Notes: generated by a model not told the origin, from the sequence alone. A stretch of DNA of 64,000 bases from Candidatus Limnocylindria bacterium (GCA_036001645.1 DASYUC010000081.1:21325-85324); one strand, 5' to 3'. Shown: positions 43,096-64,000, numbered from the stretch's first letter. Translations and numbers: made by a program.

Positions 43096-44460
43096 TTGAG
43101 GGCTCGAACCGGTAACCTAGACATCGTGGGCGACGAGATCCGCATGCTGCCCGACCGCTATCACGGGGCCATCGAGCACTGGCGGCAGCACAACTTCCCC
43201 GATTACCCGCAGCTCGCCGAGGTCTGGCCGAAGTTCTTCCCCAAGGACGAGCCCTTCTGCCTGTGCGCGAAGGCAGCGGCGGACATTCCGGCCGAGATCG
43301 AGATCGGCGACGACGTCGGGAAGCCAAAGGCACTCCAGCCGAAGGAGCTCGCGCCCGAAGCGGCGCAGCACCTGCTTTCGCAGATCCGCGCGCAGGCGTC
43401 GACCGAATTCGGATCGATCCAGCAACATCAGATGACGCTCTTCCGCGCGCAGGAGCCGCAGGACCAGGCTTGGGCGCTGCGCGTGATGGCCGAGGAGCTG
43501 CGCCACGGCTATCAAATGGTCCATTTGCTGACGAGCTCCGATTGGTCGCCGGTGACGGAAACGAAGCCCGAGGACATGGTGGAAGAGATCCTCTCGATGC
43601 AGACCGGCAGTCACGTGCTCGCGGCCTTCAACCTCGAGTTCGATTCGTTCCTCGACAACGTGGTGTTCGCGGCGTTCATCGACCGCGTCGGGAAATACCA
43701 GCTCACGATGCAGAGGATCTCGGCGTACAAGCCGTACGCGTCGTCGATGCCGCCGATGCTGCGCGAGGAGGCGTTCCACCTGGCCGCGGGCGTCATCCCG
43801 CTTCGCCGCTGGGTGGAGCACGCCGCGCGCGGCGACGGATACATCGACATGCCCGCGATCCAGAAGTCTGTTCACAAGTGGTTCGGTCGAGGCTTGGAGA
43901 TGTTCGGGGACGAGCGCGGCGGCCAGACGAACGTGAAGTTCGGCCTCAAGGACTTGAACAACAGAGACGCGCAGGATCAGTACATCCAGGAATGCACCAA
44001 GATGCTCGACGACCTCAACGTCCGCTACGTGCGCGCACGCTTCCCGGATCGCACGCGCGAGGAGGCCGACGCGATCTTCGCGCGTGTCGCAGCGGGCGAG
44101 ACGGTCGGCGGGCTTTCGCGTGACGACCTGCTGCGGGTGCCGGATCGGCGTTTCTTCCGACGTCGCGGGGAGTTCGCGTTCCAGATGTTCGGCACGCATG
44201 GCGAGACATTCACCGACGTGGAGAAGTACATCGCCCATGTGCTCGCGAGCCTGCCCGAGGCCTACCGCGCCTCGATCGATGTGAAGCACTGGGCCGACAC
44301 ACAGCGCGCGGTCGTCGCGGGTGCGACGCCGCTGAAGCAAGCGATGGCGTCGATGCCGCGGCTTGCGCGTCAGGCCGGCGGGTGTCCCTGCGGCAAGTCC
44401 GTCCGCTGGGTAGTTGATCAAGCCGGCGGCACGGCCGGAGGCGAGCGCCTGAACCCCTAG
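43096..44460 (+). CDS. BoxB-like di-iron oxygenase (benzoyl-CoA 2,3-epoxidase subunit B / PaaA superfamily)
   Basis: Di-iron carboxylate boxes are 'STEFGSIQQH', 'MAEELRHG', 'FIDRVGKYQL' and 'MLREEAFHL'. The N-terminal 'HWRQHNFPDYP' and the overall length resemble BoxB as I remember it. The start is uncertain: TTG 43096, GTG 43126 or ATG 43144. Confidence 0.65.
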   Translation: MRARTGNLDIVGDEIRMLPDRYHGAIEHWRQHNFPDYPQLAEVWPKFFPKDEPFCLCAKAAADIPAEIEIGDDVGKPKALQPKELAPEAAQHLLSQIRAQASTEFGSIQQHQMTLFRAQEPQDQAWALRVMAEELRHGYQMVHLLTSSDWSPVTETKPEDMVEEILSMQTGSHVLAAFNLEFDSFLDNVVFAAFIDRVGKYQLTMQRISAYKPYASSMPPMLREEAFHLAAGVIPLRRWVEHAARGDGYIDMPAIQKSVHKWFGRGLEMFGDERGGQTNVKFGLKDLNNRDAQDQYIQECTKMLDDLNVRYVRARFPDRTREEADAIFARVAAGETVGGLSRDDLLRVPDRRFFRRRGEFAFQMFGTHGETFTDVEKYIAHVLASLPEAYRASIDVKHWADTQRAVVAGATPLKQAMASMPRLARQAGGCPCGKSVRWVVDQAGGTAGGERLNP

Positions 44461-45335
44461 TGGAGGTCGGCCTCGGCCTCGACTCGCGGCTCGGCCTTTC
44501 ATCCGCGCAGCTGCGCGACCTCGCGCCCGAAGCGAGCGCGCTCGGCTACGAGAGCCTCTGGACGAACGCGGGCGTGGACTACGACCCGGTGGAGATGTGC
44601 GTCGCCTGGCATGAGCGCTCCGGCCTCCCGACGGGCGTGTCCGTCGTCCCGATCGCGCGCAACCCGGCGCCGGTGCTCGCGCTCGCGGCGCGCACCGCGC
44701 ACGAGCTCAGCGCCGGGAGGTTCATCCTCGGCGTCGGCTCGGGAAGCGTGAGCGAGCGCCCCATCGCCGCGGTGCGCTCGTACATCGACGAGCTGCGCAA
44801 GATCGCGAAGGACGTCCCGATCTACGTCGGCGCGCTCGGGCCGCAGATGCTCGCCCTCGCGGGCCGCCATGCCGATGGCGCCGCGCTCAACTGGTGCACG
44901 CCGGCGCAGGTGGCGTGGAGCCGCGAGCGCGTCGGCCCGCGCGCGAAGCTCATCGAGTACATCCGCATGTGCGTGGACGACGACGTCGCTGCCGCGCGGC
45001 TCGCGCTGGCGCGACAGATCCTCGCCTACGCGCTGCTCGTCCGGCCCTCGGGCGCTCGTGGCTATCGGACGCACTTCGAGCGGATGGGCTTTGCATCGCA
45101 TCTCGACGAGCTCGAGGCGAAGCGCGCGGCCGGCGTCTCCGAGGACGAGCTCGCGCGCGCGGTGCCGGACGAGATGCTGTCCGCGCTCGGCTATGCCGGC
45201 CCGGCCGCGGGCGCCGCGGCGGCCTTCAAGAGGCTGAGCGCGGGGCTCGATGTCGCGATCGTGCGCGTGCTCGTCGCGCGTCAGGGCAACGTGGAAGGCG
45301 TGCGCGCGACGATGGGCGCCGCGCTCGCCGCCTAG
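44460..45335 (+). CDS. LLM-class (luciferase-like) flavin/F420-dependent oxidoreductase
   Basis: 'LGYESLWT', 'FILGVGSGS', 'PIYVGALGPQMLALAGRHADGAALNW' and a TIM-barrel LLM pattern are present. The GTG start shares one nt with the upstream TAG. Confidence 0.8.
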   Translation: MEVGLGLDSRLGLSSAQLRDLAPEASALGYESLWTNAGVDYDPVEMCVAWHERSGLPTGVSVVPIARNPAPVLALAARTAHELSAGRFILGVGSGSVSERPIAAVRSYIDELRKIAKDVPIYVGALGPQMLALAGRHADGAALNWCTPAQVAWSRERVGPRAKLIEYIRMCVDDDVAAARLALARQILAYALLVRPSGARGYRTHFERMGFASHLDELEAKRAAGVSEDELARAVPDEMLSALGYAGPAAGAAAAFKRLSAGLDVAIVRVLVARQGNVEGVRATMGAALAA

Positions 45336-45433
45336 GACGCGGCGCGAGCCGCCCGGGCGCTCGGGAAATTCGCGTACGACTTAGGCCAGAGAACTCGGAC
45401 GCGGGCAGCTCGCGACTCGTGGAAGATACCTCC

Positions 45434-46525: not shown

Positions 46526-46572
46526 CGCGGCTTAGCGCCGGCCTCGATGTCGCGATGTTTCGCGTTCTCGGC

Positions 46573-47460
46573 TTACGTGGACCACGGCTGACGCTGCGTT
46601 CCCTGAGGAAATCGCAGACCGGCATCAAACTCGGGTAGCTCGGCCGCAACAAGAGCCCCCGTCTCCTCGACCAGGCGGCCAAGCTCAGCGGCTGCGGACT
46701 CAGGATCGAGCCGAAAGAGCGATTCGAGTCGCTCGGCTAGTCGCGCCGGGGCGAGCGTCATCTTCGCGATGTACGCCCGGGTCCCCTTGAGCTGAAAGCG
46801 TGTGAAGTAGAGACGGTTCAGGCCGGCGAGCACGCCGAGCAGGTTGAACGCTCCTTCCAGGAGCATGTCGAGCCGCCAAAGCTCCGCGTCGCGTTTTGCG
46901 AGCGCGGCGCCTTCGTACCACAGCGGGAAGAAGCGCCAGTAGCGTTGGACCATCGCCAACCGGAGCGGTTCAGGGTAGTGAGCAGCGCGCACTTTCCATC
47001 GCTCGATCAGCTCGTGCCCGTGCATCGCAAGACCCTCGAGAAGACCCGAGAGGATCTTCTGACTCGGTGAGTCGAGATCCATCAGCCGCTCCAATAGGTC
47101 GTCGAGCCTCGTCTCCATCCAGTTGACAGTGGCAAAGGAGAGCTCGACTCGAACGCCGTTCAGGTCGAACTCGTCCGCCGAGAAGTGCTCGGTCCGTTGG
47201 GCTCTCCGAACGGCCTTGGTCCCACCGACGGCTTCGCGTACATCTGTCGCAACGTCCTGCGAAGGGACAAGGTCGACGTAACAGATGAGGTCGATGTCCG
47301 AGTAGTTATCAGCGTCGCCTCGGCCAGCCGAGCCGGCGAGGAGCGCAGCACGAAGCGGCACATGCTCACGCACTCGGTCAAGGACTCCTTCAGCGAGCGC
47401 ACGCAGGTGTTCGCTCGCCGGACTCACACGACCCGATCGTGGCCGCCGGTCTGGTCCCAC
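46573..47460 (-). CDS. Pol-beta-superfamily nucleotidyltransferase with C-terminal helical domain (KNTase/ANT-like)
   Basis: The 'AGSAGRGDADNYSDIDLICYV' NTase motif (G-S-x-x-R-G...D-x-D) is present. The GTG start overlaps the MFS stop by one nt. Confidence 0.65.
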   Translation of the reverse strand: MGPDRRPRSGRVSPASEHLRALAEGVLDRVREHVPLRAALLAGSAGRGDADNYSDIDLICYVDLVPSQDVATDVREAVGGTKAVRRAQRTEHFSADEFDLNGVRVELSFATVNWMETRLDDLLERLMDLDSPSQKILSGLLEGLAMHGHELIERWKVRAAHYPEPLRLAMVQRYWRFFPLWYEGAALAKRDAELWRLDMLLEGAFNLLGVLAGLNRLYFTRFQLKGTRAYIAKMTLAPARLAERLESLFRLDPESAAAELGRLVEETGALVAAELPEFDAGLRFPQGTQRQPWST

Positions 47461-48713
47461 TAGGACGCGGCCGCGTCCGTCGGTTCTTCAATGACCGGCC
47501 GCGGATCGCGGAAGCGACGCACCTCGTCGTCGCGCGCGTTCACGCCGACGATCGCGACCGCGATGAGGGCGGCACCGGCCGTCGCCGCGACCGCCGGGCC
47601 GAACGCTTCGACGGCGAGGCCGGTCTGGAGCTGGGACGTCTGCGCCATGCCGCGCCCCACCAGGAGGAACGCCGAGAGCGTCCGCCCGCGATAGGCCTCG
47701 TCGGCCTGCAGCTGGAAGATGCTGTTGCGCATCGTGGCCCACCACGTATCGGCGAAGCCGACGGCCGCGAGCGTCAGGGCCGAGAGCTCGAACGATCGCG
47801 ACCAAGCGAACGTCGCGAACGACGCGACGTACGCGTAGCCCGAGAGCATCATCGAGCGACCCTTGCGTTCCACGTCGCCGCTCATGACGAGCGCGCCGGT
47901 CCCGACGAGCGCACCGGCGCCAAGAGCGCTGAGCAGGAACCCGAGTCCCTCCGGCCCGACGTGGAGCACATCCTTCGCGACGATCGTCACGAGCGCTGTG
48001 TTCGCGCCGAAGAGGCTGTGGATGGACTCGAGGGCGAGCAGGTTCGCGAGGACCCGCTTGCCGAGCGTGTAGCGGACGCCGTCGATGGTCTCGGCCCACA
48101 GCGACGCCCGAACGCGTGCGACGATCGCCGGCGTTCCCATGAGCAGCAGCGCGCCGATGATCGCGAGGAAGCTCGCCGCGTTGACGAAGTACGGGAGCGC
48201 CGGACCGGTCGTCACGATGAGGATGCCGGCCAGGCTCGGGCCGATGAGCCGCGCGATGCGGAATACCGCGGCGTTCAGCGTGATCGCGTTCTGCATCTGC
48301 GAACGGGGGACCATCGTCGTGTACATCGCTCGCCGGGCGGGCGCGTCGAACGCCTGGAGCGTGGCGTTCATGACGCTGGCGACGTAGATGTGCCAGACCT
48401 GGACCTGGCCGGTCGCAACGACGAGGCCGAGCCCGAGCGACGTGAGCGCCGAGCCGCTCTGCGTGATGAGCAGAAGACGGCGTCGATCGACGCGGTCCGC
48501 GATCGCGCCGGCGAGCAGACCGAACGCGAAGATCGGGATCGCGCGCAGCGCACCGCCGATGCCGAGCAGCACCGGCGAGCCGGTGATCTCGTACAGGAGC
48601 CACGTGGTGAGCGTCTGCTCCATCCAGCTGCCGCACTGCGAGACGGTGAGGCCGGTGAAGTAGAGGGCGAAGTCACGATGACGGAGCGGGGCAAGGCCCG
48701 GAGCGAAGCGCAT
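47460..48713 (-). CDS. MFS transporter (EntS/MFS_3-like efflux type)
   Basis: 'LRHRDFALYFTGLTVSQCGSWM' and 'AGAIADRVDRRRLL' are present, with about 12 hydrophobic helices. Start is taken at ATG 48713. Confidence 0.8.
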   Translation of the reverse strand: MRFAPGLAPLRHRDFALYFTGLTVSQCGSWMEQTLTTWLLYEITGSPVLLGIGGALRAIPIFAFGLLAGAIADRVDRRRLLLITQSGSALTSLGLGLVVATGQVQVWHIYVASVMNATLQAFDAPARRAMYTTMVPRSQMQNAITLNAAVFRIARLIGPSLAGILIVTTGPALPYFVNAASFLAIIGALLLMGTPAIVARVRASLWAETIDGVRYTLGKRVLANLLALESIHSLFGANTALVTIVAKDVLHVGPEGLGFLLSALGAGALVGTGALVMSGDVERKGRSMMLSGYAYVASFATFAWSRSFELSALTLAAVGFADTWWATMRNSIFQLQADEAYRGRTLSAFLLVGRGMAQTSQLQTGLAVEAFGPAVAATAGAALIAVAIVGVNARDDEVRRFRDPRPVIEEPTDAAAS

Positions 48714-48790
48714 CTGCGCGTCATATATTCGTTTTTCTGAGCACACATCGTCTCCGGTTCACTCTCAATGGCTCGCCCCAGTCACTCGAG

Positions 48791-49198
48791 GTGCGCGCGG
48801 ACCGACGGCTCATCGACGTTCTCCGCGACGACCTGGGACGCACCGGGACCAAGGAAGGCTGCTCGATCGGCGTCTGCGGCGCCTGCAGCCTGCTCGTCGG
48901 CGGCGAGCTGCTGTCGGCCTGCCTCCTGCCCGCGCTCTTCGTTGACGGCCTTGCCGTTACCACTGTGGAGGGCCTCGCGCACGGCGACGAGCTCTCGCCG
49001 CTCCAGGATGCGTTCATCCGCGAAGGCGGCTTCCAGTGCGGGATCTGCACGCCCGGCCAGCTCATCGCCGCGACGGCGCTTCTCGCGGAGCGTCCCCGAC
49101 CGAGTGCCGACGAGATCCGCGAGTGGATGATGGGAAACCTGTGTCGCTGCACCGGTTATCACGGGATCACGCGTGCGATCCAGGCGGCCGTCGCGTGA
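48791..49198 (+). CDS. (2Fe-2S)-binding small subunit of a xanthine-dehydrogenase/CO-dehydrogenase-family molybdenum hydroxylase (canonical-start model; the true start is probably upstream, see finding)
   Basis: 'GTKEGCSIGVCGACSLLV...SAC' is the plant-type cluster and 'GFQCGICTPG...CRCTGY' is the second cluster. Conserved N-terminal strand codons lie upstream of GTG 48791. Confidence 0.8.
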   Translation: MRADRRLIDVLRDDLGRTGTKEGCSIGVCGACSLLVGGELLSACLLPALFVDGLAVTTVEGLAHGDELSPLQDAFIREGGFQCGICTPGQLIAATALLAERPRPSADEIREWMMGNLCRCTGYHGITRAIQAAVA

Positions 49199-50055
49199 CG
49201 TACGACTATCACGAGCCCGAGTCCGTCGCCGAAGCCCTCGAGCTGCTCGCGCGCCACGGCGAGGATGCGCACCTCGTCGCCGGTGCGACAGCGTTCACGC
49301 TGCTCTGGCGACAGGGCCTGCTGCGACCGGGACACGTCATCGGTCTGCGCCGCATCGCGTCGCTCGGCGGCATCACGCGCGCGGGCGGCGGACTCACGAT
49401 CGGCGCCACCGTGACCCACCGCGCGATCGAGCGGTCGGACGACGTCGCCGGCTACTGCCCCGCGCTGACGCGCACATTCGCGTCGGTGGCGACCGTGCGC
49501 GTGCGCAATCAGGCGACGCTCGGAGGCAACCTCGCGCACGCCGATCCGGCGCAGGATCCGCCACCGATGCTGATCGCGCTGGGTGCCGAGGTCGTCGCGA
49601 TGTCCGCGACCGGCGAGCGCACGATCCCTCTCGACGACCTGTTCGTCGACGTGTTCACGACGTCGCTGCGCGCCGACGAGATCCTGACCTCGGTGCATTT
49701 CCCGGCGCTCGCACCGGGCACGCGTGCGACGTATCTGAAGTTCCTACCGCGGACCGCCGACGACTACGCGACGGTCTCGGTCGCGGCGGCGCTGCGACTC
49801 GCGGGGGACGGCACCGTCGCCGATCTACGCGTGGCGCTCGGCGCGTGCGGCCCGACGCCGGTGCGCGCGCGGTCGGTGGAGGCGGCGCTGAAGGGCCTGC
49901 GACCCGATGCCACGCGCATCGCGGATGCGGCTGGGCGCGTCGATGCCGACATCGCCCCTTTCGACGACGTCCGCGGTTCGTCCGCATACAAACGCGACAT
50001 GGCGCGCGTATGGACGGAGCGCGCCCTCAGCGAGCTCGTGGGGCGGCGGCGGTGA
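49195..50055 (+). CDS. FAD-binding medium subunit (CoxM/XdhB-like) of the molybdenum hydroxylase
   Basis: GTGA overlap with the upstream gene. 'HLVAGATAF', 'RNQATLGGNLAHADP' and 'DVRGSSAYKRDMARV' are present. Confidence 0.85.
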   Translation: MTYDYHEPESVAEALELLARHGEDAHLVAGATAFTLLWRQGLLRPGHVIGLRRIASLGGITRAGGGLTIGATVTHRAIERSDDVAGYCPALTRTFASVATVRVRNQATLGGNLAHADPAQDPPPMLIALGAEVVAMSATGERTIPLDDLFVDVFTTSLRADEILTSVHFPALAPGTRATYLKFLPRTADDYATVSVAAALRLAGDGTVADLRVALGACGPTPVRARSVEAALKGLRPDATRIADAAGRVDADIAPFDDVRGSSAYKRDMARVWTERALSELVGRRR

Positions 50056-50495
50056 AGCTCTCCCACACCGCCCTCGTCCGGGCGCCCCGCGCGCGAGTCT
50101 GGAAGCTCGTCACCGATGTGCCCGCGGCCGCGCGCTGCGTGCCCGGTGTGGCGGCGGTGACCCCATCCGGCGCCGGGAAGTACAAAGGGTCGCTCCTGGT
50201 GCAGCTCGGACCGGTGCGTCTGGTGCTCGACGGGGACGTCGCGCTCACCGCGACCGACGAGGCCGCAGGAAAAGCTTCGGTACGCGCGGACGCCAAGGAC
50301 TCGCGCCTCGGCGGCACGGTCCGCGCGACGATGGATCTCACGCTGGTGGACAGGGGCGAGGACACGGAGCTACGGATCACCAGTGATGTCCAGATCGCCG
50401 GCCGGATCGGTGAGTTCGGACAGCCGGTCATCCAGCGCAAAGCCGACCAGCTGATGACGCAGTTCGCCGAATGCCTCGCGCGCACGCTCGCGTGA
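50052..50495 (+). CDS. SRPBCC/CoxG-family protein
   Basis: GTGA overlap with the upstream gene. 'RVWKLVTDVPAAARCVPGV' and 'IAGRIGEFGQPVIQRKADQLMTQFAECL' match the CoxG pattern. Confidence 0.75.
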   Translation: MKLSHTALVRAPRARVWKLVTDVPAAARCVPGVAAVTPSGAGKYKGSLLVQLGPVRLVLDGDVALTATDEAAGKASVRADAKDSRLGGTVRATMDLTLVDRGEDTELRITSDVQIAGRIGEFGQPVIQRKADQLMTQFAECLARTLA

Positions 50496-52693
50496 CGACT
50501 ACCGGGGGGCTGCGCCCCCCGGGGACCGCCCACGCCGCCGATGTCCTCGAGACACCCGAGTACCGGGTCGAGGGGCGCGACAAGGTCACCGGCGCGGCGC
50601 GCTACGCGGCGGACATCAAACGACCGGGCATGCTCCACGCCGCATTCGCCGGCAGCCCGTATCCGCATGCGCGAGTGGTTTCGGTCGACGTCGAGGCGGC
50701 GCGCAAGATGCCGGGCGTGCGCGCCGTGCTCACCGGCGCCGACGTGCGGCCGGCGCGTTTCGGCCGCCGTCTGCAGGACTGGCCGGTGCTCGCGTGGGAC
50801 CGCGTGCGCTTCATCGGCGACCGCGTCGCGGCGGTCGCGGCGGACTCGCTCGAGGCGGCGGAGGCCGCGGCCGCCGCGATCGCGGTGGAGTACGAGGAGC
50901 TGAGGGCAGTCCTGGACCCCGAGGCGGCGCTCGCACCGGATGCGCCGATCCTGCATCCCGAAGCGACCGAGTACACGTACTTCGGCGGCGCGAGACCCGC
51001 GCGACCGCACGAGAACATGCAGGGCCACGTGATCGACGAGCACGGCGACCTCGCGGCCGGATTCGAGAGCGCGACGGCCGTCTTCGAGCACGAGTTCAGC
51101 GTTCCGCGTGTCCATCAGGCATACATCGAGCCGCGCGCGAGCCTGGTCTGGATCGAGGGCGAGATCGTTCACGTCGTCACGACGAACAAGGCTCCCTTCG
51201 CGCTGCGCGATCAGATGGCCGTGACGATCGGCATCCCCGCCGCGCGCATCGTCGTGGACACGCCGCATGTCGGCGGCGATTTCGGCGGCAAAGGTCTCTC
51301 GCTCGATGAGTTCGCCCTGTACTTCCTGGCGCGGGCGAGCGGTCGGCCGGTCCGCTCGGTGCTCAGGTACGCCGACGAGCTGCAGATCTCGAACACGCGT
51401 CACGCCGCGCGCATCCGCCTTCGCACGGGCGTCGATCGCGACGGTCACATCACCGCGCACCAGGCGCGGGTGGTCTTCGACGGCGGCGCGTACGCCGCGG
51501 GAAAGCCGGTCGCGGGCCTGCTCCCCGGCGGCCCCACGCTGACGCTCGCCGGCTATCGCGTGCCCGCCGCGCGCGTCGAAGCGGTCGCCGCGTACACGAA
51601 CACCCTTCCCGCCGGACACGCGCGCGCGCCGAGCCAGCCGCAGCTCACCTTCGCGGCCGAGTCGCATCTGGATCTCATCGCGCGCGCGCTCGGGATCGAC
51701 CCGTTCGAGCTGCGTGAGCGCAACGCGATACACGCGGGCGAGACCGACGTCGAGGGCGCCGTGTGGCACGACTCGGAGGCGCCGCGCGTGCTCGCGATGC
51801 TTCGTGCGGCGTCGCGTTCGGGAGGCATGCTCGCGAAGGATCACGGACGAGGTCTGGCTCTCTCCGCGAGACACATCGGCCGCGGCAAGACCTCGCTCAC
51901 GCTCACGCTCGCGTCGGACGGATCGGTCGAGGTGCTCACGGGCGTGGCCGATCAGGGCGGCGGCGCGCACACCATGATCCAGCGCGTGGTCGCGCGCGAG
52001 CTCGGCATCGACACCGCTCGCGTACGTGTGCGACAGGGCGACACCGGTCACGCGAACGTCGATCCCGGCGTCGGGGGCAGCCGCGTCACGCCTGTCGCGG
52101 GCAACGCCGCGCTCGACGGCGCGCGCAAGCTCAAGGCGCGCCTCGCCGAGCTCGGCGTGACGCTGGACGAAGCGGCGCGCCGCGCCGCGCGGCTCGTCGT
52201 CACCGGCGAGGGCGAGCAGAACGAGCACCTCTACGGCGTGTACGCGTACTCGATCGAGGTCGCGGTCGACCGCGAGACCGGCTCGTTCCGGGTCGTCGAT
52301 GCGGTGCTCGTGGCGGACGTCGGCACCGTGATCAATCCGGTGGCGGTGCGGGGGCAGCTCGAGGGCGGGTTCGTGTACGGTCTCGGACAGGCCGTCATGG
52401 AGGAGCTGCGACTGGAAGACGGCCGCGTGACGACGACCAATCTGGGCGACTACAAGATCCCCACCAGCGCGGATGCTCCACCGCTGCGCCTCGTGCTCAT
52501 CACCGACGCGCCCGGTCCCGGTCCCTTCGGCGCGAAGTCCGCGGGTGAGCTCGCCAACCCGGCGGTCGGTGCCGCGATCGCGAACGCCATCGATGCCGCC
52601 GTGGGCGCGCGCGTCATGTCGCTCCCGATCACGGCCGAGAAGGTCCGTTCGGCCCTGCGAACGACGGGCAATCGCTCGGCGGAGCCCGGCTAG
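50492..52693 (+). CDS. Molybdopterin-binding large subunit of the xanthine-dehydrogenase/aldehyde-oxidase family hydroxylase
   Basis: GTGA overlap with the upstream gene. 'RVEGRDKVTGAARYAAD', 'GGDFGGKG' and 'GAKSAGELANPAVGAAIANAI' (catalytic Glu context) are present. Confidence 0.85.
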   Translation: MTTTGGLRPPGTAHAADVLETPEYRVEGRDKVTGAARYAADIKRPGMLHAAFAGSPYPHARVVSVDVEAARKMPGVRAVLTGADVRPARFGRRLQDWPVLAWDRVRFIGDRVAAVAADSLEAAEAAAAAIAVEYEELRAVLDPEAALAPDAPILHPEATEYTYFGGARPARPHENMQGHVIDEHGDLAAGFESATAVFEHEFSVPRVHQAYIEPRASLVWIEGEIVHVVTTNKAPFALRDQMAVTIGIPAARIVVDTPHVGGDFGGKGLSLDEFALYFLARASGRPVRSVLRYADELQISNTRHAARIRLRTGVDRDGHITAHQARVVFDGGAYAAGKPVAGLLPGGPTLTLAGYRVPAARVEAVAAYTNTLPAGHARAPSQPQLTFAAESHLDLIARALGIDPFELRERNAIHAGETDVEGAVWHDSEAPRVLAMLRAASRSGGMLAKDHGRGLALSARHIGRGKTSLTLTLASDGSVEVLTGVADQGGGAHTMIQRVVARELGIDTARVRVRQGDTGHANVDPGVGGSRVTPVAGNAALDGARKLKARLAELGVTLDEAARRAARLVVTGEGEQNEHLYGVYAYSIEVAVDRETGSFRVVDAVLVADVGTVINPVAVRGQLEGGFVYGLGQAVMEELRLEDGRVTTTNLGDYKIPTSADAPPLRLVLITDAPGPGPFGAKSAGELANPAVGAAIANAIDAAVGARVMSLPITAEKVRSALRTTGNRSAEPG

Positions 52694-52717
52694 TATTCGG
52701 AGCTCAGCGGAGGCGCC

Positions 52718-53440
52718 ATGTCGCAGTTCAACGACAAGGTCTCGCCCAAGGACTTCGTGAAGATGCCGCCCGAATACAAGGATCTCCTCATCCGCCTGCT
52801 CACGATCCAGGCGGACTGCGAGATCGGCGGGCCGCACATCTACGTCGACCACTGGACGCTCCGCGCGCCGACCGTCGATGACCAGTGGCGCGTCGCGCGC
52901 ATCGCGTCCGAGGAGATCGACCACTGCCGCAAGATGCTGCGCCTGCTCAACCTCATCGACATCGACCGCTCCGACATCCTCGAGCGACCGCGCAGCAAGC
53001 GTGAGGTCGATGCCTTCAAAGAGGACATGCCGACGTGGGCCGACTTCGCCGCGTTCGGATTCCTCATCGACAAGGTGGGTGAGTACCAGCTCGAGGAGAT
53101 GGTCGGCTCCACCTTCGCGGCCATCGACGACACGCTGCCGATCATCCTGCGCGAGGAGAAGGGCCACGTCGCCTACGGCGAGCAGCAACTTCAGAAGCTC
53201 ATTCAGAGTGGGGCCGCAGGCAAAGCGCAGGCTCAGGCCGCGATCTCGAAGTGGTATGGCATCGGGCTGGACATGTTCGGAAAATCCGGCTCGTCGCGCA
53301 CCGAGCGCTACCTCGAGTGGGGCCTGAAGCGCCGCACCAACGAGGAAGCGCGCCGCCAGTACATCGCCGAGATGGAGCCGAAGATCGCCGCGCTCGGACT
53401 CGTCGTCCCGGATCGTCTGCAGGGCAGGAAGTACCTCTAG
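52718..53440 (+). CDS. PaaA/PaaC-family di-iron protein (phenylacetyl-CoA epoxidase subunit-like), short form with a complete ligand set
   Basis: An SD 'GCGGAGG' lies upstream. E...ExxH is present twice: 'ADCEIGG...ASEEIDH' and 'LEEMVG...REEKGH'. Confidence 0.75.
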   Translation: MSQFNDKVSPKDFVKMPPEYKDLLIRLLTIQADCEIGGPHIYVDHWTLRAPTVDDQWRVARIASEEIDHCRKMLRLLNLIDIDRSDILERPRSKREVDAFKEDMPTWADFAAFGFLIDKVGEYQLEEMVGSTFAAIDDTLPIILREEKGHVAYGEQQLQKLIQSGAAGKAQAQAAISKWYGIGLDMFGKSGSSRTERYLEWGLKRRTNEEARRQYIAEMEPKIAALGLVVPDRLQGRKYL

Positions 53441-53455
53441 CAGATTTTTCGGCGC

Positions 53456-54991
53456 GTGACGGAGCCGTTCAACCTCTCGACTGTTCTCCTCGACGAGCAT
53501 CTCGCCGCGGGTCGCGGCGGTCGTCCAGCGCTCCACTACGAAGGAGCGGCGCTCAGCTACCGCGATGTCTCGGAGCTCGTCGCGCGCACCGGCGGCGCAC
53601 TGCGGTCGCTCGGCGTCGAGATGGAGGACCGGGTCGCGCTGCTGCTTCCCGATTCGCCGGAGTTCGTCGCGACATTCCTCGGCGCGATTCGCATCGGCGC
53701 CGTGCCGGTGACGCTGTCGATCTACCTCACGAGCGACGACTACGCGGAGTTGCTCGCGGACTGCCGGGCGCGCGTGCTCGTCGCGCACGCGAGCGTCATG
53801 CCCCGCGTCGCGCCGATCCGCCGCGCCCTGCCGCAGCTGCGTCACATCGTCATCGCCGGCGGCGACCACGGGCCGGATGCCGGGTTCGACGACCTCACGC
53901 GGTCACAGCCGAGCGAGCTCGCGCCCGAGGCGACGACCGCCGACGACATGGCGTTCTGGCAGTACTCGAGCGGCACGACCGGACGGCCGAAGGCCGTCGT
54001 GCACCTGCACGGACCGGCCGCGACACCGGCGGACCTGCACGGCGCCCACGTCGTGGGCATGAGCGCGGACGACCGCGTGCTCAGCGCGGCGAAGCTCTTC
54101 TTCTCCTACGGCCTCTGCTCGTCGCTGCTCATACCGTTCCGCCGCGGCGCCTCCTCGGTCCTCCTCCCCGGCCGGCCCGAGCCGCGCCTGGTGTTCGAGA
54201 CCATCGCGCGCGAGCGGCCGACCATCCTCTACGCGGTGCCCACGACGTACGCAGCGCTGCTCGCGGTCCCGGAGAGCGAGCGCCCCGATGTGTCGTCGCT
54301 GCGCCGTTGCATCTCCGCGGGCGAGGCGCTGCCCGCGCCGCTGTTCGAGCGCTGGCGGGCCCGGTTCGGCCTCGAGATCCTCGACGGGATCGGCTCGACC
54401 GAGATCGGCTACATCAGCATCTCGAACTTCCCGGGTCGGGCCCGGCCCGGCACCTCCGGTCAGGTCATCCCGGGCTACGACGCGCGCGTGCAGCGCGACG
54501 ACGGCGAAGGTGCCGCCGTGGGCGAGGTCGGCGACCTGCTGGTGCGCGGTCCCTCGACCGCCGCCTTCTACTGGCGGCGGCGCGCCGCGACGAAGCACAC
54601 GTTCCGCGGCGAGTGGGTCTTCACCGGCGATCGATATTCGGTCGATGCCGACGGCTATTACACGAACCAGGGACGCTCCGACGATCTGCTGCGCGTGAGC
54701 GGTCATTGGGTCTCACCGCTCGAGGTCGAGTCCGTCCTGCTGCGTCATCCGGCGGTGCGCGAGTGCGCGGTGGTCGCGCGGGCGGACCGCGACGGCCTGG
54801 TCAAGCCGTGCGCGTACGTCGTCTGCGCTGATGGTGCGGCCGCGGCGCCGGCGCTCGCCGACGACCTCAAGGCGTTCGTGAAAGACGCGCTCGCACCATA
54901 CAAGTACCCGCGCTGGGTCGAATTCATCCCCGAGCTGCCCAAGACTTCGACCGGCAAGATCCAGCGGTTCAAGCTGCGACGTGAGCAGTAG
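53456..54991 (+). CDS. Aryl-CoA ligase (benzoate/4-hydroxybenzoate-CoA ligase-like, ANL superfamily)
   Basis: AMP-binding box 'WQYSSGTTGRPKAV', 'GEVGDLLVRGPS', 'YWRRRAATKHTF..W..TGDRY' and the C-terminal 'LPKTSTGKIQRFKLR' are present. Confidence 0.8.
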   Translation: MTEPFNLSTVLLDEHLAAGRGGRPALHYEGAALSYRDVSELVARTGGALRSLGVEMEDRVALLLPDSPEFVATFLGAIRIGAVPVTLSIYLTSDDYAELLADCRARVLVAHASVMPRVAPIRRALPQLRHIVIAGGDHGPDAGFDDLTRSQPSELAPEATTADDMAFWQYSSGTTGRPKAVVHLHGPAATPADLHGAHVVGMSADDRVLSAAKLFFSYGLCSSLLIPFRRGASSVLLPGRPEPRLVFETIARERPTILYAVPTTYAALLAVPESERPDVSSLRRCISAGEALPAPLFERWRARFGLEILDGIGSTEIGYISISNFPGRARPGTSGQVIPGYDARVQRDDGEGAAVGEVGDLLVRGPSTAAFYWRRRAATKHTFRGEWVFTGDRYSVDADGYYTNQGRSDDLLRVSGHWVSPLEVESVLLRHPAVRECAVVARADRDGLVKPCAYVVCADGAAAAPALADDLKAFVKDALAPYKYPRWVEFIPELPKTSTGKIQRFKLRREQ

Positions 54992-56804
54992 CGGTCGCCC
55001 GGCTGTGGAAGAGCTTGTCCGCCGCGTCGAGCGTCTTGCCGGTGTGGGCTTCAGCTCGGTTCCCTCGTTCTCTCCCGACGGATCACGCATCGCGTTCATC
55101 ACCGATCTGTCCGGATCGCCACAGGTTTGGACAGTGAGTATCGAGGGAGGCTGGCCAGAGCGCGTCACGACGTTCCCGGACCAAGTGACGAGCGCCTGGT
55201 GGTCGCCGGTGGACGAGCGCATCGCGGTCGAGGTGGCACCCGGCGGCGGGCTGAATCAGCAGGTCTACACGGTCCGCGCGGACGGTTCCGACGTGCGCCG
55301 GCTCACTCCGGGCGGCAGCGAGAACAATCGTCTCGTCCGCTGGTCGCGAGACGGCAGAACACTCTTCGTCGCCTCGAGCCGGGACGATCCATCGCATTTC
55401 GACATCTTTGCCATCGACCTGGCCACGGGAGTGTGGCGCCCGATCGCGCGCACCCGTGGGGTCAGCAATCTCACACATCTCTCGCAGGATGGGCGGTGGG
55501 CCTTGCTGAGCCGGACCGTCGCCCGCGGCGACGCGAACATCTATCTCCTCGAGCTCGAGCGCGGCGGCGAGACACTGCTGACCCCGCATCAAGGACAGGC
55601 GGTCTTCGCGTTCGCGCGATTCGGCGCTGACGGCGCCGTCTGGCTTGGAAGCGACGACTGCCGAGAACGGTTCGCCCTCGCACGCATCGCGCTGCACGCC
55701 GGGCAGCCGGGAGCGCTCGAGTACGTGGCAGCCAGGGACGACGCCGACCTCGAGAGCTTCGCCTTGAACGACGCAGGCACGACGGCGGTGATCGGTTGGA
55801 ACGTGGCGGGCAGGAGCGAGCTCGAGCTCATAGACCTGCCGACGCGCCAGATAAGGCCGGGACCGCGCCTCCCGCACGAGATCTCCGCCGATGTGTGGTG
55901 GTCACCGGACGATACGCACGTCGCGGTCGTGGCCAGCGGCGCTGCGGCTCCGGTGGATATCTGGATCGGCACACCCGGCACGGGGGAGCTGAAGCAGATC
56001 ACGCACAGCCCTCATCCGGGCGTGGATCTGGCGACGCTTATCCGTCCGCGCCTCGAGCATTTCACGGCGCACGACGGGCTCGACCTCACCGGCTGGCTCT
56101 ACGTCCCGCGCGACTTCCGTGCCCCGGGCCCGTGCGTCCTGTCGTTCCACGGCGGCCCCGAGGCGCAGGAGCGCCCGCTCCTGAACCGCACCTACCAAGG
56201 CCTGCTCGCGAACGGCATCGCGGTGTTCGCGCCGAACGTGCGCGGCTCGAGCGGTTTTGGCAAGACGTTCATCCATCTCGACGACGGCCCGAAGCGCTTC
56301 GACGGAGTTCGCGATATCCAGGCCTGCGTCGATCACGTGGTGCGGGCTGGGGTAGCCGATACCAGGCGCATCGGTATCACCGGAGGTTCGTACGGCGGGT
56401 ACATGACGATGGCCGGCATCGCCGAGTTCCCCGATGCCTTCGCTGGCGCGGTGTGCGTCTGCGGCATCGTGAACTTCCTGACCTTCTTCAAGCACACCGA
56501 GCCGTGGATGGCCGCCGTATCGAAATCGGAGTACGGCGATCCCGAGACGCAGCGCGACCTGCTCGAAGCACTCTCGCCGATCAACAAGCTCGACAACGTG
56601 AGAACGCCGCTCCTCGTGTTGCACGGCGCGAACGACACCAACGTGCCACTGGTGGAGGCCGAGCAGATGGTCGACGAGCTGCGAAAACGGAAGGTCACAG
56701 TCGAGTCGGTGATCTTCCCCGACGAGGGCCATGGCTTCACCAAGACCGTCAACCGGACGCGCGCCGCGGTCGAGACGGTGCGCTGGTTCGCGAAGTACCT
56801 GTGA
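54981..56804 (+). CDS. S9 family serine peptidase (prolyl oligopeptidase/dipeptidyl-peptidase-like) with N-terminal beta-propeller
   Basis: The GTG start overlaps the ligase gene by 11 nt. 'SFSPDGSRIAF' propeller blades are present. Nucleophile 'GGSYGGYM', plus 'VLHGANDTNVP' and 'DEGHGF', are present. Confidence 0.85.
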   Translation: MSSSGRPAVEELVRRVERLAGVGFSSVPSFSPDGSRIAFITDLSGSPQVWTVSIEGGWPERVTTFPDQVTSAWWSPVDERIAVEVAPGGGLNQQVYTVRADGSDVRRLTPGGSENNRLVRWSRDGRTLFVASSRDDPSHFDIFAIDLATGVWRPIARTRGVSNLTHLSQDGRWALLSRTVARGDANIYLLELERGGETLLTPHQGQAVFAFARFGADGAVWLGSDDCRERFALARIALHAGQPGALEYVAARDDADLESFALNDAGTTAVIGWNVAGRSELELIDLPTRQIRPGPRLPHEISADVWWSPDDTHVAVVASGAAAPVDIWIGTPGTGELKQITHSPHPGVDLATLIRPRLEHFTAHDGLDLTGWLYVPRDFRAPGPCVLSFHGGPEAQERPLLNRTYQGLLANGIAVFAPNVRGSSGFGKTFIHLDDGPKRFDGVRDIQACVDHVVRAGVADTRRIGITGGSYGGYMTMAGIAEFPDAFAGAVCVCGIVNFLTFFKHTEPWMAAVSKSEYGDPETQRDLLEALSPINKLDNVRTPLLVLHGANDTNVPLVEAEQMVDELRKRKVTVESVIFPDEGHGFTKTVNRTRAAVETVRWFAKYL

Positions 56805-56890: not shown

Positions 56891-57028
56891 ATGGAACAGA
56901 GCAGCAGCTCGTCAGGGATCATGGCCGTCATGGTGGTCGCGCTCGTAGCGATCGTCGTCGTCTTTCTGCTCGTGAGTGGCGTCGTCGCACCGCAGGATGG
57001 CGGCGGCATCCACATCAATCTGCCGTAG
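56891..57028 (+). CDS. Small single-pass membrane protein (45 aa), not in the ORF track
   Basis: GGAGG at 56879-56883 lies 7 nt before the ATG. The product is 'MEQSSSSSGIMAVMVVALVAIVVVFLLVSGVVAPQDGGGIHINLP'. Coding status is unverified. Confidence 0.3.
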   Translation: MEQSSSSSGIMAVMVVALVAIVVVFLLVSGVVAPQDGGGIHINLP

Positions 57029-58780
57029 TTACCTGAAGCGCGACGGCTGCCGGCGCCGGACGATCGTGTCGACCAGCGCCGGCATCCTTCTCTCCTTCAC
57101 GTACGCGAGCGCGCGTTCGATCGCCGGACCCGCCGCATCCCCGTCCGCGATCGGACCCTCCGCGTACCAGCCGAGGCTCTTCGCCAGCATCGCGAAGTCC
57201 GGCGCCGGATCGTCGATCTCTTGCCCGACGCGCGCGTTCTCGACCGGCGTGCCGCGGTGACGCGCGACGCGGATCTGATGCTCGAAGTCGTTGTAGTAGG
57301 CGCGGTTGTTGTACATGACCACGAGCAGCGGGATGCGGCTGTTCGCGGCCGTCCAGAGCGCGCCCAGGTCGTACATGAGATCGCCGTCGGGCTGCACGTC
57401 GACGACGACCGTGTCCGTCCCGCGGTACGCGAGTCCGACGCCGAGCGAGACGCCGATCTGTGTCGCGGTGCCGAATGATCGTCCGGGATGACGCTTCGGC
57501 GAGTCGACGTCCCAGAGGCGCAGCGTCCAGTCCTCCAGGGTGTTCGCGGTAAGGACCCAGTCCTCGGCCTTGATCGCGTCCCAGATCTCCGACGCGAGCC
57601 GCGCCGCGGTCATCGGCGACGCATCCCAGTCGGCCTTCGCGTCGCGCTGCCACTTCTCGCCTAGCTCCTGATGCGCCGCGCCGATCTCCCTCCGGCGCGC
57701 GGCGCGGCCATCGGTGCCGGACTGCCCCCGAACGAGCGCGCGGAGCGCGGGCAGCGCGAGACGTGTATCCGCGACGATCGACAGCGCCACCGGCTGGAAG
57801 TCGCCGAGATCCTCCGCCCATTTGCTTTGCCGCAGCTCCGAGAGTCCGATGTCGACGACGGGCGTCCCCGCGGGCACCCGCGAGCGCTTCGCGCGTTCGG
57901 GGCTGTCGCGGTCCAGCTCGTTCAGCGCGCGATGCAGGTCGCCGACGTCGAGCGCGATCACGAGGTCGGCGTCCTTGAGCGCCTCGCCGCCCGAGAGGTT
58001 CAGCGGATGGCGGTTCGGGATGTTCACGCGGCCATGCAGGTCGATGACCGCGGCCGCGATGTCCTCCGCAAGGCCCACGAGCTCGGGGACGGCCTCCGGA
58101 TGCCGGCCGGTGAACTCGGTCACGATGACCGGACGCTTCGAGCGCGCGACGAGCTCCGCGACCTTCGCGAGCGCCGCCGGATCGGCCTGCGCCGGCGTCG
58201 GCCGCGCCCCGCTCACGACGTCATCGATCGCGACGGCGTGATCGAGCGCGTCTTCCTGGAGCCCGGCGTCATAGCAGAGGTACACCGGCCCGGCCGGCTC
58301 GGTGGTGGCGATCCGATACGCCCGTGCGAACGAGGCGGGGAAGTCGTCGACGGTCGCCGGCTGGTCGTCCCACTTGGTGAAGTTGCGCACGGCCTCGGCC
58401 TGCACCTGCGCGGTGTGGATCCAATCGATCGCCGGACGCCGCCGTCGCCTATCGAGCGGTCCCGTTGCTCCAAGCAGCATCAAGGGGACGCGGTCGAGGT
58501 GTGCGTAGTACACGCCCATCGTCGAGTGGAGCAGGCCGACGACGTCGTGGACGATCGCGCCCATCGGCCGTCCGGTTGCCTTCGCGTATCCGTGCGCGAC
58601 GTTCACCGCGACCTTCTCATGCGTGCACAGGATGATCTCGGGCTTGCCGCCACCGTAGTTGACGAGCGAATCGTGCAGACCGCGGTAGGTCGCGCCGGGA
58701 TTCAGCGCGACGTACTCGATGCCGAAGGCCTGCAGCAGATCGACGATGACGTCAGAGCCGAAGCGGGGCGAGCGCGTCAT
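57029..58780 (-). CDS. Thiamine-pyrophosphate-dependent enzyme (acetolactate synthase / benzoylformate decarboxylase / Xsc-like family)
   Basis: The N-terminal Pyr domain has 'GIEYVALNPGATYRGLHDSL...CTHEKVAVNVAHGYAKATG'. The C-terminal PP domain has 'GDLMYD...LWTAANSRIPLLVVMYNN' (GDG-X-NN-like TPP motif). Confidence 0.85.
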   Translation of the reverse strand: MTRSPRFGSDVIVDLLQAFGIEYVALNPGATYRGLHDSLVNYGGGKPEIILCTHEKVAVNVAHGYAKATGRPMGAIVHDVVGLLHSTMGVYYAHLDRVPLMLLGATGPLDRRRRRPAIDWIHTAQVQAEAVRNFTKWDDQPATVDDFPASFARAYRIATTEPAGPVYLCYDAGLQEDALDHAVAIDDVVSGARPTPAQADPAALAKVAELVARSKRPVIVTEFTGRHPEAVPELVGLAEDIAAAVIDLHGRVNIPNRHPLNLSGGEALKDADLVIALDVGDLHRALNELDRDSPERAKRSRVPAGTPVVDIGLSELRQSKWAEDLGDFQPVALSIVADTRLALPALRALVRGQSGTDGRAARRREIGAAHQELGEKWQRDAKADWDASPMTAARLASEIWDAIKAEDWVLTANTLEDWTLRLWDVDSPKRHPGRSFGTATQIGVSLGVGLAYRGTDTVVVDVQPDGDLMYDLGALWTAANSRIPLLVVMYNNRAYYNDFEHQIRVARHRGTPVENARVGQEIDDPAPDFAMLAKSLGWYAEGPIADGDAAGPAIERALAYVKERRMPALVDTIVRRRQPSRFR

Positions 58781-58808: not shown

Positions 58809-59852
58809 CTATTTGCCGACGCCGCGCTTCTCGGCGTCCGCGACGTACTTGTCCTCGATCACTTTCGTGACGTCGAGGTCCTTCACCTTCGCATTCGTCG
58901 CGACCAGGACATCGCGCGTCGCGGTGAACGTCGCGACGGTCGGATGTGGGTAGGCCTGGAAGATCGTGCCCACGTAGAAGTCGTAGGTCTGCGAGAGCGC
59001 CGCGGCGTCCTCGGCCTTGGAGGTGTCGAGCTTCAGCAGCTTCGCGAGGATCGGGATCGTCTTCGCCTTGTCCTTCTTCGCGATCGCGATCGCTTCGATC
59101 TCCGCGTCCACGTAGGCCTGGACCGCCTGCGGGTTCTTCTCAGCCCACGACTTCAGCACGATGGTGCAGTTGTCGGTGGCCGGGATCGTCTCCGCGCCGA
59201 GGTCGTAGATGACCTTGAAGCCCGCGGCGAGCAGCTTGACGGTGTCGGGTGGATGGCCGGGGCCCGCGTAGGCGGCGCCGCCGATCATGCCGGTCGCGAG
59301 GTTCGCGGTCGAGCCGAATGCCTGAATGGTCACGTCCTTTGCGGGGTCGAGGCCGAGCCGCTTGAGCGACTCGACCGCGGCGACGTACGCGGAGCCGCCC
59401 ACGGTCGCCACGCCGACCGTCTTGCCCTTGAGGTCGGCCGGCGTCTTGTAGTCGGACTTCGCGAGGAACTGCCACGGCGTCACGGGGACGAAGAGCGCGA
59501 CGACCTGCATGTCGGATCCGGCGACGAAGCCGCTCATCGCTTCCGTGCCGCCGAAGTTGCCGACCTGCGTCTGGTTCGAGACGAGCGCTGCCGCCGAGGG
59601 CGCGCCGCCGTCGATGAGCGACAGGTCGACGTCGAGGCCACGCCTCTCGAAAAGACCGAGCTCCTTCGCCATGAACGGCGCGAGGTTCGCGGGCGTGACG
59701 TTCCCGTACGACGACTTGATCTTGATCGGCGTCGGCGTCGCCGTCGGTGCGACCGAGGCCGCGACCGTTGGCGAGCTCGAAGCTGGCGTGCCGCCTCCGC
59801 ACGCGGCCAGGAGTGCTGTGATCCCAAGAGCCAGGACACGACTTAGGCGCAT
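58809..59852 (-). CDS. NMT1/THI5-like (SsuA/TauA-type) ABC substrate-binding lipoprotein
   Basis: ATG 59852 is preceded by GGAGG. Lipobox 'LLAAC' is present. 'DLKGKTVGVATVGGSAYVAAVESLKRLGLDP' is typical of this family. Confidence 0.7.
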   Translation of the reverse strand: MRLSRVLALGITALLAACGGGTPASSSPTVAASVAPTATPTPIKIKSSYGNVTPANLAPFMAKELGLFERRGLDVDLSLIDGGAPSAAALVSNQTQVGNFGGTEAMSGFVAGSDMQVVALFVPVTPWQFLAKSDYKTPADLKGKTVGVATVGGSAYVAAVESLKRLGLDPAKDVTIQAFGSTANLATGMIGGAAYAGPGHPPDTVKLLAAGFKVIYDLGAETIPATDNCTIVLKSWAEKNPQAVQAYVDAEIEAIAIAKKDKAKTIPILAKLLKLDTSKAEDAAALSQTYDFYVGTIFQAYPHPTVATFTATRDVLVATNAKVKDLDVTKVIEDKYVADAEKRGVGK

Positions 59853-59952
59853 CCCACACCTCCGAGATTGCCGGTCCGCGCGAGCGGCCGGAGCGGTCAA
59901 TTGTTATACCATTCGCCCGCGCCAGCGGTCCGATCTTCCAGGAGGTGTACGC

Positions 59953-63574: not shown

Positions 63575-64000
63575 CGGTCCTTCGGCCGCTCCCCCTGACC
63601 AACGAGCCAGCCCCACCGGTCGAGGGCCTTCTGCCTCGTCGCCGGTGTGGGCAGCTGTGATTTCGGGAAGCGGTCGCGCCACTCCCACGGGCGTGTCGCG
63701 TCGATGATCGCGCGCGACGAGAAGCCCTTCTTGTCGGGGTGGATCCGCGGGTCGAGCGGGCCGCTCCAGGCGCGCGGGATGATGTCGATCGATTCCGCGG
63801 GCTCCGAACGCGTGCACATCGCCCACAGCACCTGCTCGAGGTCCATGACGTCGATGTCGTCGTCGACCACGACGACGTAGCGCCCGAGATACGCCCCCGT
63901 ATGCACGGTCGCGGCCGCGTGTCCGACCTGGCGCGCGTGACCGGCGTAGCGCTGGTCGATCGAGATCGCATTGAAGAGCCGCGAGCCGCCCACCTCGTGG
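63571..64000 (-). CDS. UbiD-family (prenylated-FMN-dependent) decarboxylase, C-terminal fragment; 5' end lies outside the window
   Basis: 'GAYLGRYVVVVDDDIDVMDLEQVLWAMCTRSEP...IDATRPWEW' is the UbiD C-terminal pattern. The frame stays open to the window edge. Confidence 0.8.
   Translation of the reverse strand, partial: HEVGGSRLFNAISIDQRYAGHARQVGHAAATVHTGAYLGRYVVVVDDDIDVMDLEQVLWAMCTRSEPAESIDIIPRAWSGPLDPRIHPDKKGFSSRAIIDATRPWEWRDRFPKSQLPTPATRQKALDRWGWLVGQGERPKDR

Follow-up and report, generated by a model that had tools for sequence, protein, structure and literature searches.

To our knowledge, only two systems, Paa and Box, are known for the aerobic 'hybrid' degradation of aromatic compounds as CoA thioesters, and each combines a di-iron epoxidase with its own reductase. 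In the hbaA/hbaBCD and hcrABC loci, a ligase gene is located beside the genes for a three-subunit enzyme of the xanthine oxidase (XO) family, and the enzyme concerned, 4-hydroxybenzoyl-CoA reductase (HCR), takes low-potential electrons via a [4Fe-4S] loop. The stretch analysed here, referred to below as the window, is 64,000 nucleotides (nt) of contig C81 (DASYUC010000081.1; coordinates 21325-85324) in the 2.98 Mb, 83%-complete metagenome-assembled genome (MAG) of a Candidatus Limnocylindria bacterium (GCA_036001645.1). The window has a GC content of 68%, and its best protein matches are in Ca. Limnocylindria, a soil lineage of the Chloroflexota. It carries genes for a molybdenum (Mo) hydroxylase, a stand-alone di-iron protein designated T2 and an aryl-CoA ligase, a combination for which no description was found in the literature. 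The six genes S/M/CoxG/L, T2 and ligase form a module in which the order is shuffled between lineages while the set stays together. With slightly better than even confidence, this set is read as a previously undescribed aryl-CoA catabolic module of one Ca. Limnocylindria family, which would combine the ligase with an oxidative, HcrA-related Mo enzyme and a minimal oxygenase of the PaaA fold. The genes of the operon are as follows.

48737..49198, plus strand: S, small subunit of the Mo hydroxylase with two [2Fe-2S] clusters and a probable CTG start (Fer2 and Fer2_2)
49195..50055, plus strand: M, FAD-binding medium subunit of 286 amino acids (aa) without a [4Fe-4S] insert (FAD_binding_5 and CO_deh_flav_C)
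50052..50495, plus strand: CoxG-type SRPBCC protein, kept between M and L in relatives (PF06240, 56.8 bits)
50492..52693, plus strand: L, molybdopterin-binding large subunit, HcrA-related (Ald_Xan_dh_C, MoCoBD_1 and MoCoBD_2)
52718..53440, plus strand: T2, stand-alone di-iron protein of the PaaA fold, 240 aa (PF05138, PaaA_PaaC, 88 bits)
53456..54991, plus strand: AMP-binding aryl-carboxylate CoA ligase of the benzoate/anthranilate type (TIGR02262)
54981..56804, plus strand: cytoplasmic S9 serine peptidase, a lineage-specific passenger (Peptidase_S9; GGSYGG elbow)

Conservation of the module was examined in 80 loci, obtained by scanning species-representative genomes with a T2 alignment, in which open reading frames (ORFs) were mapped by tblastn and clustered. 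Co-occurrence was assessed in 151 genomes spread evenly over the class, 50 of them belonging to one family. T2 was confined to this family, where it was found in 33 of the 50 genomes. An orthologue of L was present in all 33 genomes carrying T2, compared with 6 of the 17 family genomes without it (Fisher p = 3e-7, with relatedness uncorrected), and T2 and L were on one contig in 24 of the 33. Limnocylindria T2 proteins (at least 73% identity) were kept with the ligase (Lig) and S-M-G-L, where G is CoxG, in several orders. Those seen were T1-[LLM]-T2-Lig-S-M-G-L, where T1 is a second di-iron protein and LLM a luciferase-like monooxygenase-type oxidoreductase, [UbiD/ABC]-T2-Lig-S-M-G-L, T2-S-M-G-L, Lig-T2, and the S-M-G-L-T2-Lig of the window. 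Of the 18 Limnocylindria loci having at least 5 kb on both flanks, 16 had L no more than 10 kb from T2. The linkage of Mo hydroxylase, stand-alone di-iron protein and aryl-CoA ligase, proposed in an earlier reading made from the window alone (the sequence-only reading), is thus a conserved one, and the co-occurrence data rule out a chance juxtaposition.

A congeneric genome that is 97% complete (G004) was found to carry T1, a 42-residue remnant of the ligase and an intact S-M-G-L, with T2 gone (locus L106, G004:C17:72000-88000, 12065-13010). T2 and the ligase were evidently removed together in this genome by a natural deletion that left the Mo enzyme intact.

Residues E35, E66-x-x-H69, D118 and E147-x-x-H150 of T2 align with the metal ligands of PaaA, and across 28 sequences from several phyla these six ligands vary little or not at all. 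An AlphaFold model of T2 built on the 28-sequence alignment (pLDDT 95.5) was compared with known structures using Foldseek, which returned PaaA (3pw8) first with a query-normalised TM-score (TMq) of 0.87 and a root-mean-square deviation of 2.2 Å, followed by SSO1313 (4mud; 0.81), BoxB (0.78) and PaaC (0.75). The earlier suggestion that the 240-aa protein retains both E...ExxH boxes and resembles PaaA is therefore upheld by both the ligands and the ferritin-like fold. A role as a PaaC structural subunit was rejected, as all six ligands are present, the score against TIGR02158 is 37 vs 133 and the fold match is weaker than that to PaaA. T2 also falls below the equivalog models for PaaA (TIGR02156, 90.7 vs 280) and BoxB (TIGR03225, 53.5 vs 499), and in a maximum-likelihood tree it forms its own clade, apart from PaaA, PaaC and BoxB. 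The T2 family is small, with 40 matches at E <= 1e-30 and 693 at E <= 0.001 among 1.84 billion representatives at 50% identity. The 'lysine bridge' of PaaA consists of Lys68 and Glu49 (PMC4498308). These positions correspond to Ile62 and Val43 in T2, and the bridge is not conserved.

A further stand-alone PaaA-like subfamily, 28-33% identical to T2, was recovered by tblastn searches of plasmids and chromids (L083, Alteromonas, and L084, Burkholderia plasmids). In this subfamily a radical SAM protein and a MaoC or PaaI-type hot-dog protein are always encoded next, and the Alteromonas gene adjoins a Tn3 transposase. These surroundings shed no light on the module.

The Mo enzyme belongs to the XO family. 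S contains eight cluster Cys residues (42, 47, 50, 62, 101, 104, 136 and 138), as in other small subunits of the family, M has the domains of the FAD subunit, and L has the hammerhead, two MoCo-binding domains and the C-terminal catalytic Glu. L also retains GGDFGG, and its 'GAKSAGEL' aligns with the catalytic region of HcrA. Among curated NCBIfam models, L scored highest against HcrA (TIGR03194, 442 bits; cut-off 994.6), followed by PucD (398), XdhA (357), glyceraldehyde dehydrogenase (310) and CoxL (TIGR02416, 256; cut-off 991). The ranking against PDB structures was likewise headed by HcrA (1rm6_A, 272 bits), ahead of quinoline oxidoreductase (222) and carbon monoxide dehydrogenase (CODH; 217). 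This placement is given by hidden Markov model and PDB score rankings, not by a tree, and the Hcr equivalog cut-offs were all missed (alpha, 442 vs 994.6; beta, 102 vs 404.6; gamma, 146 vs 257.8). The Cu-binding Cys loop of CODH (AYXCSFR) was not found in L, where the loop reads 'AAYTNTLPAGHARAP' and contains no Cys. This, together with the TIGR02416 score, rules out an aerobic CODH. L is neither a CODH nor a purine hydroxylase, and the sequence-only reading, which either identity would have undone, survives on this point with HcrA as the nearest characterised relative by score.

The medium subunit was compared with HcrB to establish the state of the Cys-rich [4Fe-4S] insertion, which the sequence-only reading had not seen in it. 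M contains only two Cys in its 286 aa, and its residues 120-281 match positions 159-319 of the HcrB model TIGR03195, a shift of ~39 positions, hence the insertion is absent. The best NCBIfam match of M was the beta subunit of an archaeal glyceraldehyde dehydrogenase (225 bits). By these comparisons L belongs to an HcrA-related enzyme that is without the feature letting HCR run reductively.

A second paralogue of L with 67% identity was found at the end of a 2-kb contig, C103. Flags of an internal TGA on L orthologues were traced to the natural stop codon being read through by the search, and do not reflect recoding. In the plasmid and chromid searches, relatives of L had only up to 36% identity, and an Arthrobacter plasmid encoding a Mo enzyme, an adenylate-forming enzyme and an SRPBCC protein is a loose analogue of the locus.

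The ligase scored over the family cut-off of TIGR02262 (601 bits vs 375.25, residues 4-509). Its top PDB matches were the anthranilate-CoA ligase 4wv3 (460 bits) and the benzoate-CoA ligase BadA (422 bits).

Canonical paa and box partners, reported as missing from the window by the sequence-only reading, are missing beyond it as well: searches of the 83%-complete genome gave no PaaB (PF06243) and no BoxA or BoxC match above cut-off. This genome has only two PF05138 genes, T1 and T2, and both are within the window. None of the Limnocylindria loci has a gene for PaaE, BoxA or another reductase within or close to the module, and reductase genes of the FNR type are found only on unrelated contigs of the genome. 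Four module loci include a gene for a PF01613 flavin reductase, and in this genome one is found on contig C109. There it belongs to a paralogous island that also encodes an ABC transporter, a class II aldolase, a bicupin, UbiD, a substrate-binding protein and a thiamine pyrophosphate (TPP)-dependent enzyme, and an island of this kind flanks the T2-ligase-Mo module in other Limnocylindria.

Further features of the window lie on either side of the operon.

43096..44460, plus strand: T1, BoxB-clade di-iron protein of 454 aa, 4 kb upstream of the module (TIGR03225, 57 bits; cut-off 499)
44460..45335, plus strand: F420-type LLM oxidoreductase coupled to T1, adjoining T1 in 7 loci (TIGR03620, 107 bits)
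46573..48746, minus strand: nucleotidyltransferase and MFS_3 exporter, between T1-LLM and the Mo operon (Pfam)
56930..56958, plus strand: terminator-like hairpin 3' of the S9 peptidase gene, the sole one of the operon region (1 site vs 2.0 expected, weak evidence)
57029..58780, minus strand: TPP-dependent enzyme, a recurrent neighbour of the module (TPP_enzyme_N, _M and _C)
58809..59900, minus strand: SsuA/NMT1-type ABC substrate-binding protein, a recurrent neighbour (TIGR01728, 69 bits; cluster c1 in 29 loci)
63571..64000, minus strand: 3' part of the gene for a UbiD-family decarboxylase, extending past the window (UbiD_C; the full gene on C81 shares 83% identity with cluster c8)

In a maximum-likelihood tree T1 groups with true BoxB at 100/95 support, and its gene is directly 5' of T2 in many loci. 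T1 was found in 45 of the 50 family genomes, 10 of them without both T2 and L, and loci of type B carry T2 with no T1 within 10 kb. These distributions exclude T1 as an obligate PaaC-like subunit of T2, and T1 is best regarded as an independent, more widespread oxygenase that is a frequent neighbour of the module. A match to T1 in Nonomuraea was set aside as its genetic context is unrelated.

The seven plus-strand genes of the operon, with the domains claimed for them earlier, were found to be real using Pfam and NCBIfam. ORFs were called with a stricter filter on third-position GC (GC3) plus tblastn mapping, and a 1280-aa antisense ORF was discarded as spurious, being a product of longest-ORF or simple GC3 calling on DNA of 68% GC. 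The tight spacing of the genes was also verified, with GTGA stop/start overlaps at 49195, 50052 and 50492, a 24-nt gap containing GGAGG before the ATG of T2 at 52718, a 15-nt gap before the GTG of the ligase at 53456, and an 11-nt overlap between the GTG at 54981 and the ligase stop codon (TAG; 54989-54991). The S9 peptidase gene has further possible starts at 55005 and 55044. No terminator-like site was found inside the operon. The start at 48714 given for the operon by the sequence-only reading was wrong, being out of frame with the Fe-S subunit S, and in the frame of S the first ATG, GTG or TTG is only reached at GTG 48791. As a CTG at 48737 lines up exactly with the ATG, GTG or TTG start of '(M)STHRLRFTLNG' in relatives and is kept as a CTG in five closely related genomes, it is taken as the probable start of S. 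If the divergent MFS (major facilitator superfamily) gene begins at its first GTG (48746), its 5'-end overlaps that of the S gene by ~10 nt.

The S9 peptidase, which had been counted as part of the operon unit, was missing from all 80 related loci. Orthologues with 66-77% identity are present in four congeners, where they are on other contigs with no ligase adjacent. The S9 peptidase thus does not belong to the unit, and by this pattern it is a recent passenger rather than a member of the module. On the other side of the operon, the region 45335-47460 has a third-position GC of 0.65-0.72 vs ~0.88 and includes the nucleotidyltransferase gene (GC3 of 0.71) and a 1.2-kb stretch with a weak PD40 match only. 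Neither this region nor the MFS gene is at the corresponding place in the close relative L005, and given this absence the two together look like an insertion. Downstream, the TPP-dependent enzyme, for which the best PDB match is benzoylformate decarboxylase (80 bits), recurs in 14 related loci and is encoded directly 5' of the ligase or T2 in L017, L027 and L028. The part of the window 3' of the module also holds genes for a bicupin and an MFS transporter, and these recur around the module in relatives.

Homologues of T2 with 50-56% identity were found in other phyla in diverse gene contexts. At 40 such loci outside Limnocylindria, no Mo enzyme was found adjacent to T2, and an XO-family M-S-L was present ~8 kb from T2 in two of the 40, both in Deltaproteobacteria. 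T2 is beside the alpha and beta subunits of an electron transfer flavoprotein (ETF) at five loci, and beside a NuoF-like protein and a thioredoxin-like [2Fe-2S] ferredoxin at four, one of which adds a PaaX regulator, a crotonase and a CoA-transferase. Further neighbours include a ligase with crotonase and thiolase, and enzymes of the BcrAD/HGD type. The theme common to the T2 neighbourhoods is CoA-ester metabolism.

At loci L051 and L074, the T2 homologue adjoins genes for a BcrAD/BadFG ATPase and HGD-D-type subunits, which are of the benzoyl-CoA reductase (BCR) or 2-hydroxyacyl-CoA dehydratase class, so that a di-iron protein of an O2-type family is encoded beside oxygen-sensitive radical enzymes. 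A conserved protein of 62-70 aa without a Pfam match is encoded directly 3' of the T2 homologue at 20 loci in Deltaproteobacteria and Binatia (L047, L056, L059, L064 and others), often followed by ETF beta and alpha or by a 183-aa cupin, and it has no counterpart in the window.

The module probably serves to degrade an aromatic acid, along a path unlike any described so far. Judging from its family, the benzoate/anthranilate-type ligase would turn an aromatic or heteroaromatic carboxylic acid into the CoA thioester. The XO-family Mo enzyme would then oxidise this thioester by inserting a hydroxyl group derived from water, as furoyl-CoA dehydrogenase does, and T2, from its fold and ligands, could act with O2 on that or the following CoA-bound intermediate, by epoxidation or hydroxylation. 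The ring might then be opened and broken down further by steps like those of beta-oxidation, carried out by the products of crotonase, aldehyde dehydrogenase, TPP-enzyme and UbiD genes, which flank the module in relatives. In the present genome, some of these genes are downstream and others are on separate contigs. The hybrid aryl-CoA pathway proposed by the sequence-only reading is retained in its conserved link between the Mo enzyme, di-iron protein and ligase, its HcrA-related L and its PaaA-like T2, and is given up in the membership of the S9 peptidase and in the start coordinate.

Several findings weigh against an aryl-CoA module in which the three activities work together. None of L, S, M and T2 reaches the cut-off of any equivalog model, which makes the assigned function an extrapolation from distant relatives, and the genome is only 83% complete. 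G004 retains an intact S-M-G-L without T2 or the ligase, which argues against an obligate partnership of the Mo enzyme and T2, and six genomes carry L without T2. T2 homologues also occur in apparently anaerobic Deltaproteobacteria, beside ETF or BCR-like genes and with no Mo enzyme adjacent. Finally, as Mo hydroxylases normally require a heteroatom-activated or aldehyde carbon and the ligase is benzoate/anthranilate-like, the Mo enzyme and the ligase may not share one substrate.

The Mo enzyme might instead act before the ligase. The TPP enzyme would decarboxylate a 2-oxo acid of the aryl-glyoxylate type to an aromatic aldehyde, S-M-G-L would oxidise the aldehyde to the acid, the ligase would form the CoA ester and T2 alone would attack the ring. 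Aldehyde oxidation is a canonical XO-family reaction, and this order would suit the recurrence of the TPP enzyme by the module, directly 5' of the ligase or T2 at three loci, as well as the best matches of the TPP enzyme (benzoylformate decarboxylase) and of M (glyceraldehyde dehydrogenase). However, L scores higher against HcrA (442 bits) than against aldehyde-oxidoreductase models (310, 270 and 238), the TPP enzyme is missing from many module loci, and all of these matches are far under their cut-offs; this order is considered possible but unlikely. The kinship of L with HcrA, its closest characterised relative, could also point to a reductive route like that of HCR, with S-M-G-L stripping a hydroxyl or amino substituent from the ring of an aryl-CoA to yield benzoyl-CoA and T1 epoxidising the product. 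The position of the ligase beside a three-subunit XO-family enzyme mirrors hbaA/hbaBCD, and many loci have T1, a member of the BoxB clade, next to the module. Such a route is nevertheless very unlikely, given that M has no [4Fe-4S] loop, the three Hcr equivalog scores are far under their cut-offs, the distribution of T1 is independent of L and T2, and T2 would be left without a role.

The source of electrons for T2 raises a more speculative scheme, in which hydroxylation of the aryl-CoA by the Mo enzyme would free two electrons for passage through the [2Fe-2S] clusters and FAD to T2, and T2 would activate O2 without an NAD(P)H reductase. If true, the ring would be oxygenated twice on the same molecule in a redox-neutral manner, using neither NAD(P)H nor a dedicated reductase. 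No reductase gene accompanies the module in any Limnocylindria locus, T2 and L are together in 33/33 genomes, and other phyla have alternate flavin/Fe-S modules beside T2 (ETF at five loci, NuoF-like and ferredoxin at four). Nevertheless, these are associations only, no gene fusions were seen, G004 keeps S-M-G-L after the loss of T2, and T2 in other phyla has no XO-family enzyme directly beside it (one is ~8 kb away in 2/40). The PF01613 flavin reductase encoded in four module loci and on C109 could be the donor instead, and many di-iron enzymes use housekeeping ferredoxins, leaving the scheme distinctly unlikely. The least probable of the readings is that T2 is not a ring oxygenase but an O2-reducing electron sink, or a protective oxidase, for flavoproteins such as the FAD subunit of the Mo enzyme, ETF or the NuoF-like protein. 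It would explain homologues in Syntrophobacteraceae-type MAGs beside ETF and O2-sensitive BCR/HGD-type enzymes, and an identity that is very high across phyla (51-56%) despite the varied contexts, but the fold is nearest to the CoA-ester epoxidase PaaA, T2 is consistently beside a CoA ligase or crotonases, and in G004 it disappeared along with the ligase.

If the six genes do form an aryl-CoA catabolic module, it would be a third hybrid arrangement, in which a minimal PaaA-fold oxygenase is permanently linked to an HcrA-related Mo enzyme. Limnocylindria are an abundant uncultured soil lineage with poorly known carbon sources. Identifying the substrate of the module would also give a function to the so far unassigned T2 family, in which 51-56% identity is maintained between several phyla, and would test whether a Mo hydroxylase can be the electron source of an oxygenase.

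Compared with known systems, T2 shares the PaaA fold and equivalents of the PaaA metal ligands with PaaABCE of E. coli (3pw8, 3pvr). However, T2 is ~70-85 residues shorter than PaaA, belongs to a separate clade and has no lysine bridge residues, and PaaB, PaaC, PaaD and PaaE are not encoded in the genome carrying the module. SSO1313 of Sulfolobus solfataricus (4mud) is also a stand-alone PaaA-like protein of comparable size (235 aa) and similar fold (target-normalised TM-score, 0.87-0.88), but it is only 22% identical to T2, is on the T1/BoxB side of the tree and gives no functional guidance. In BoxAB of Azoarcus evansii (3per, 3pm5), the di-iron epoxidase of the CoA ester, BoxB, consists of a single subunit and works without a structural partner, and T1 of the window falls in its clade. 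BoxB (~470 aa) is twice as large as T2, and BoxA and BoxC are not in the module genome.

In Cupriavidus basilensis HMF14, 2-furoyl-CoA dehydrogenase (HmfABC) is accompanied by a furoyl-CoA synthetase (HmfD) and a UbiD decarboxylase (HmfF) (PMC8091172). Compared by pathway logic and not by sequence, the module resembles this system in proceeding from acid to CoA ester to Mo-dependent hydroxylation of the thioester, and in having UbiD decarboxylase and crotonase genes nearby, whereas its ligase is of the benzoate/anthranilate type and the hmf pathway has no di-iron oxygenase. HcrABC/HbaBCD of Thauera aromatica and Rhodopseudomonas palustris (1rm6) likewise pairs a benzoate-family CoA ligase gene with neighbouring genes for a three-subunit XO-family Mo enzyme, and HcrA is the best characterised match of L in both NCBIfam (442 bits) and PDB (272 bits) searches. 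The module differs from it in an FAD subunit without the [4Fe-4S] insert, in an extra CoxG and in three subunits far under the equivalog cut-offs. It also differs in being linked to a di-iron oxygenase, suggesting that its Mo enzyme probably works oxidatively.

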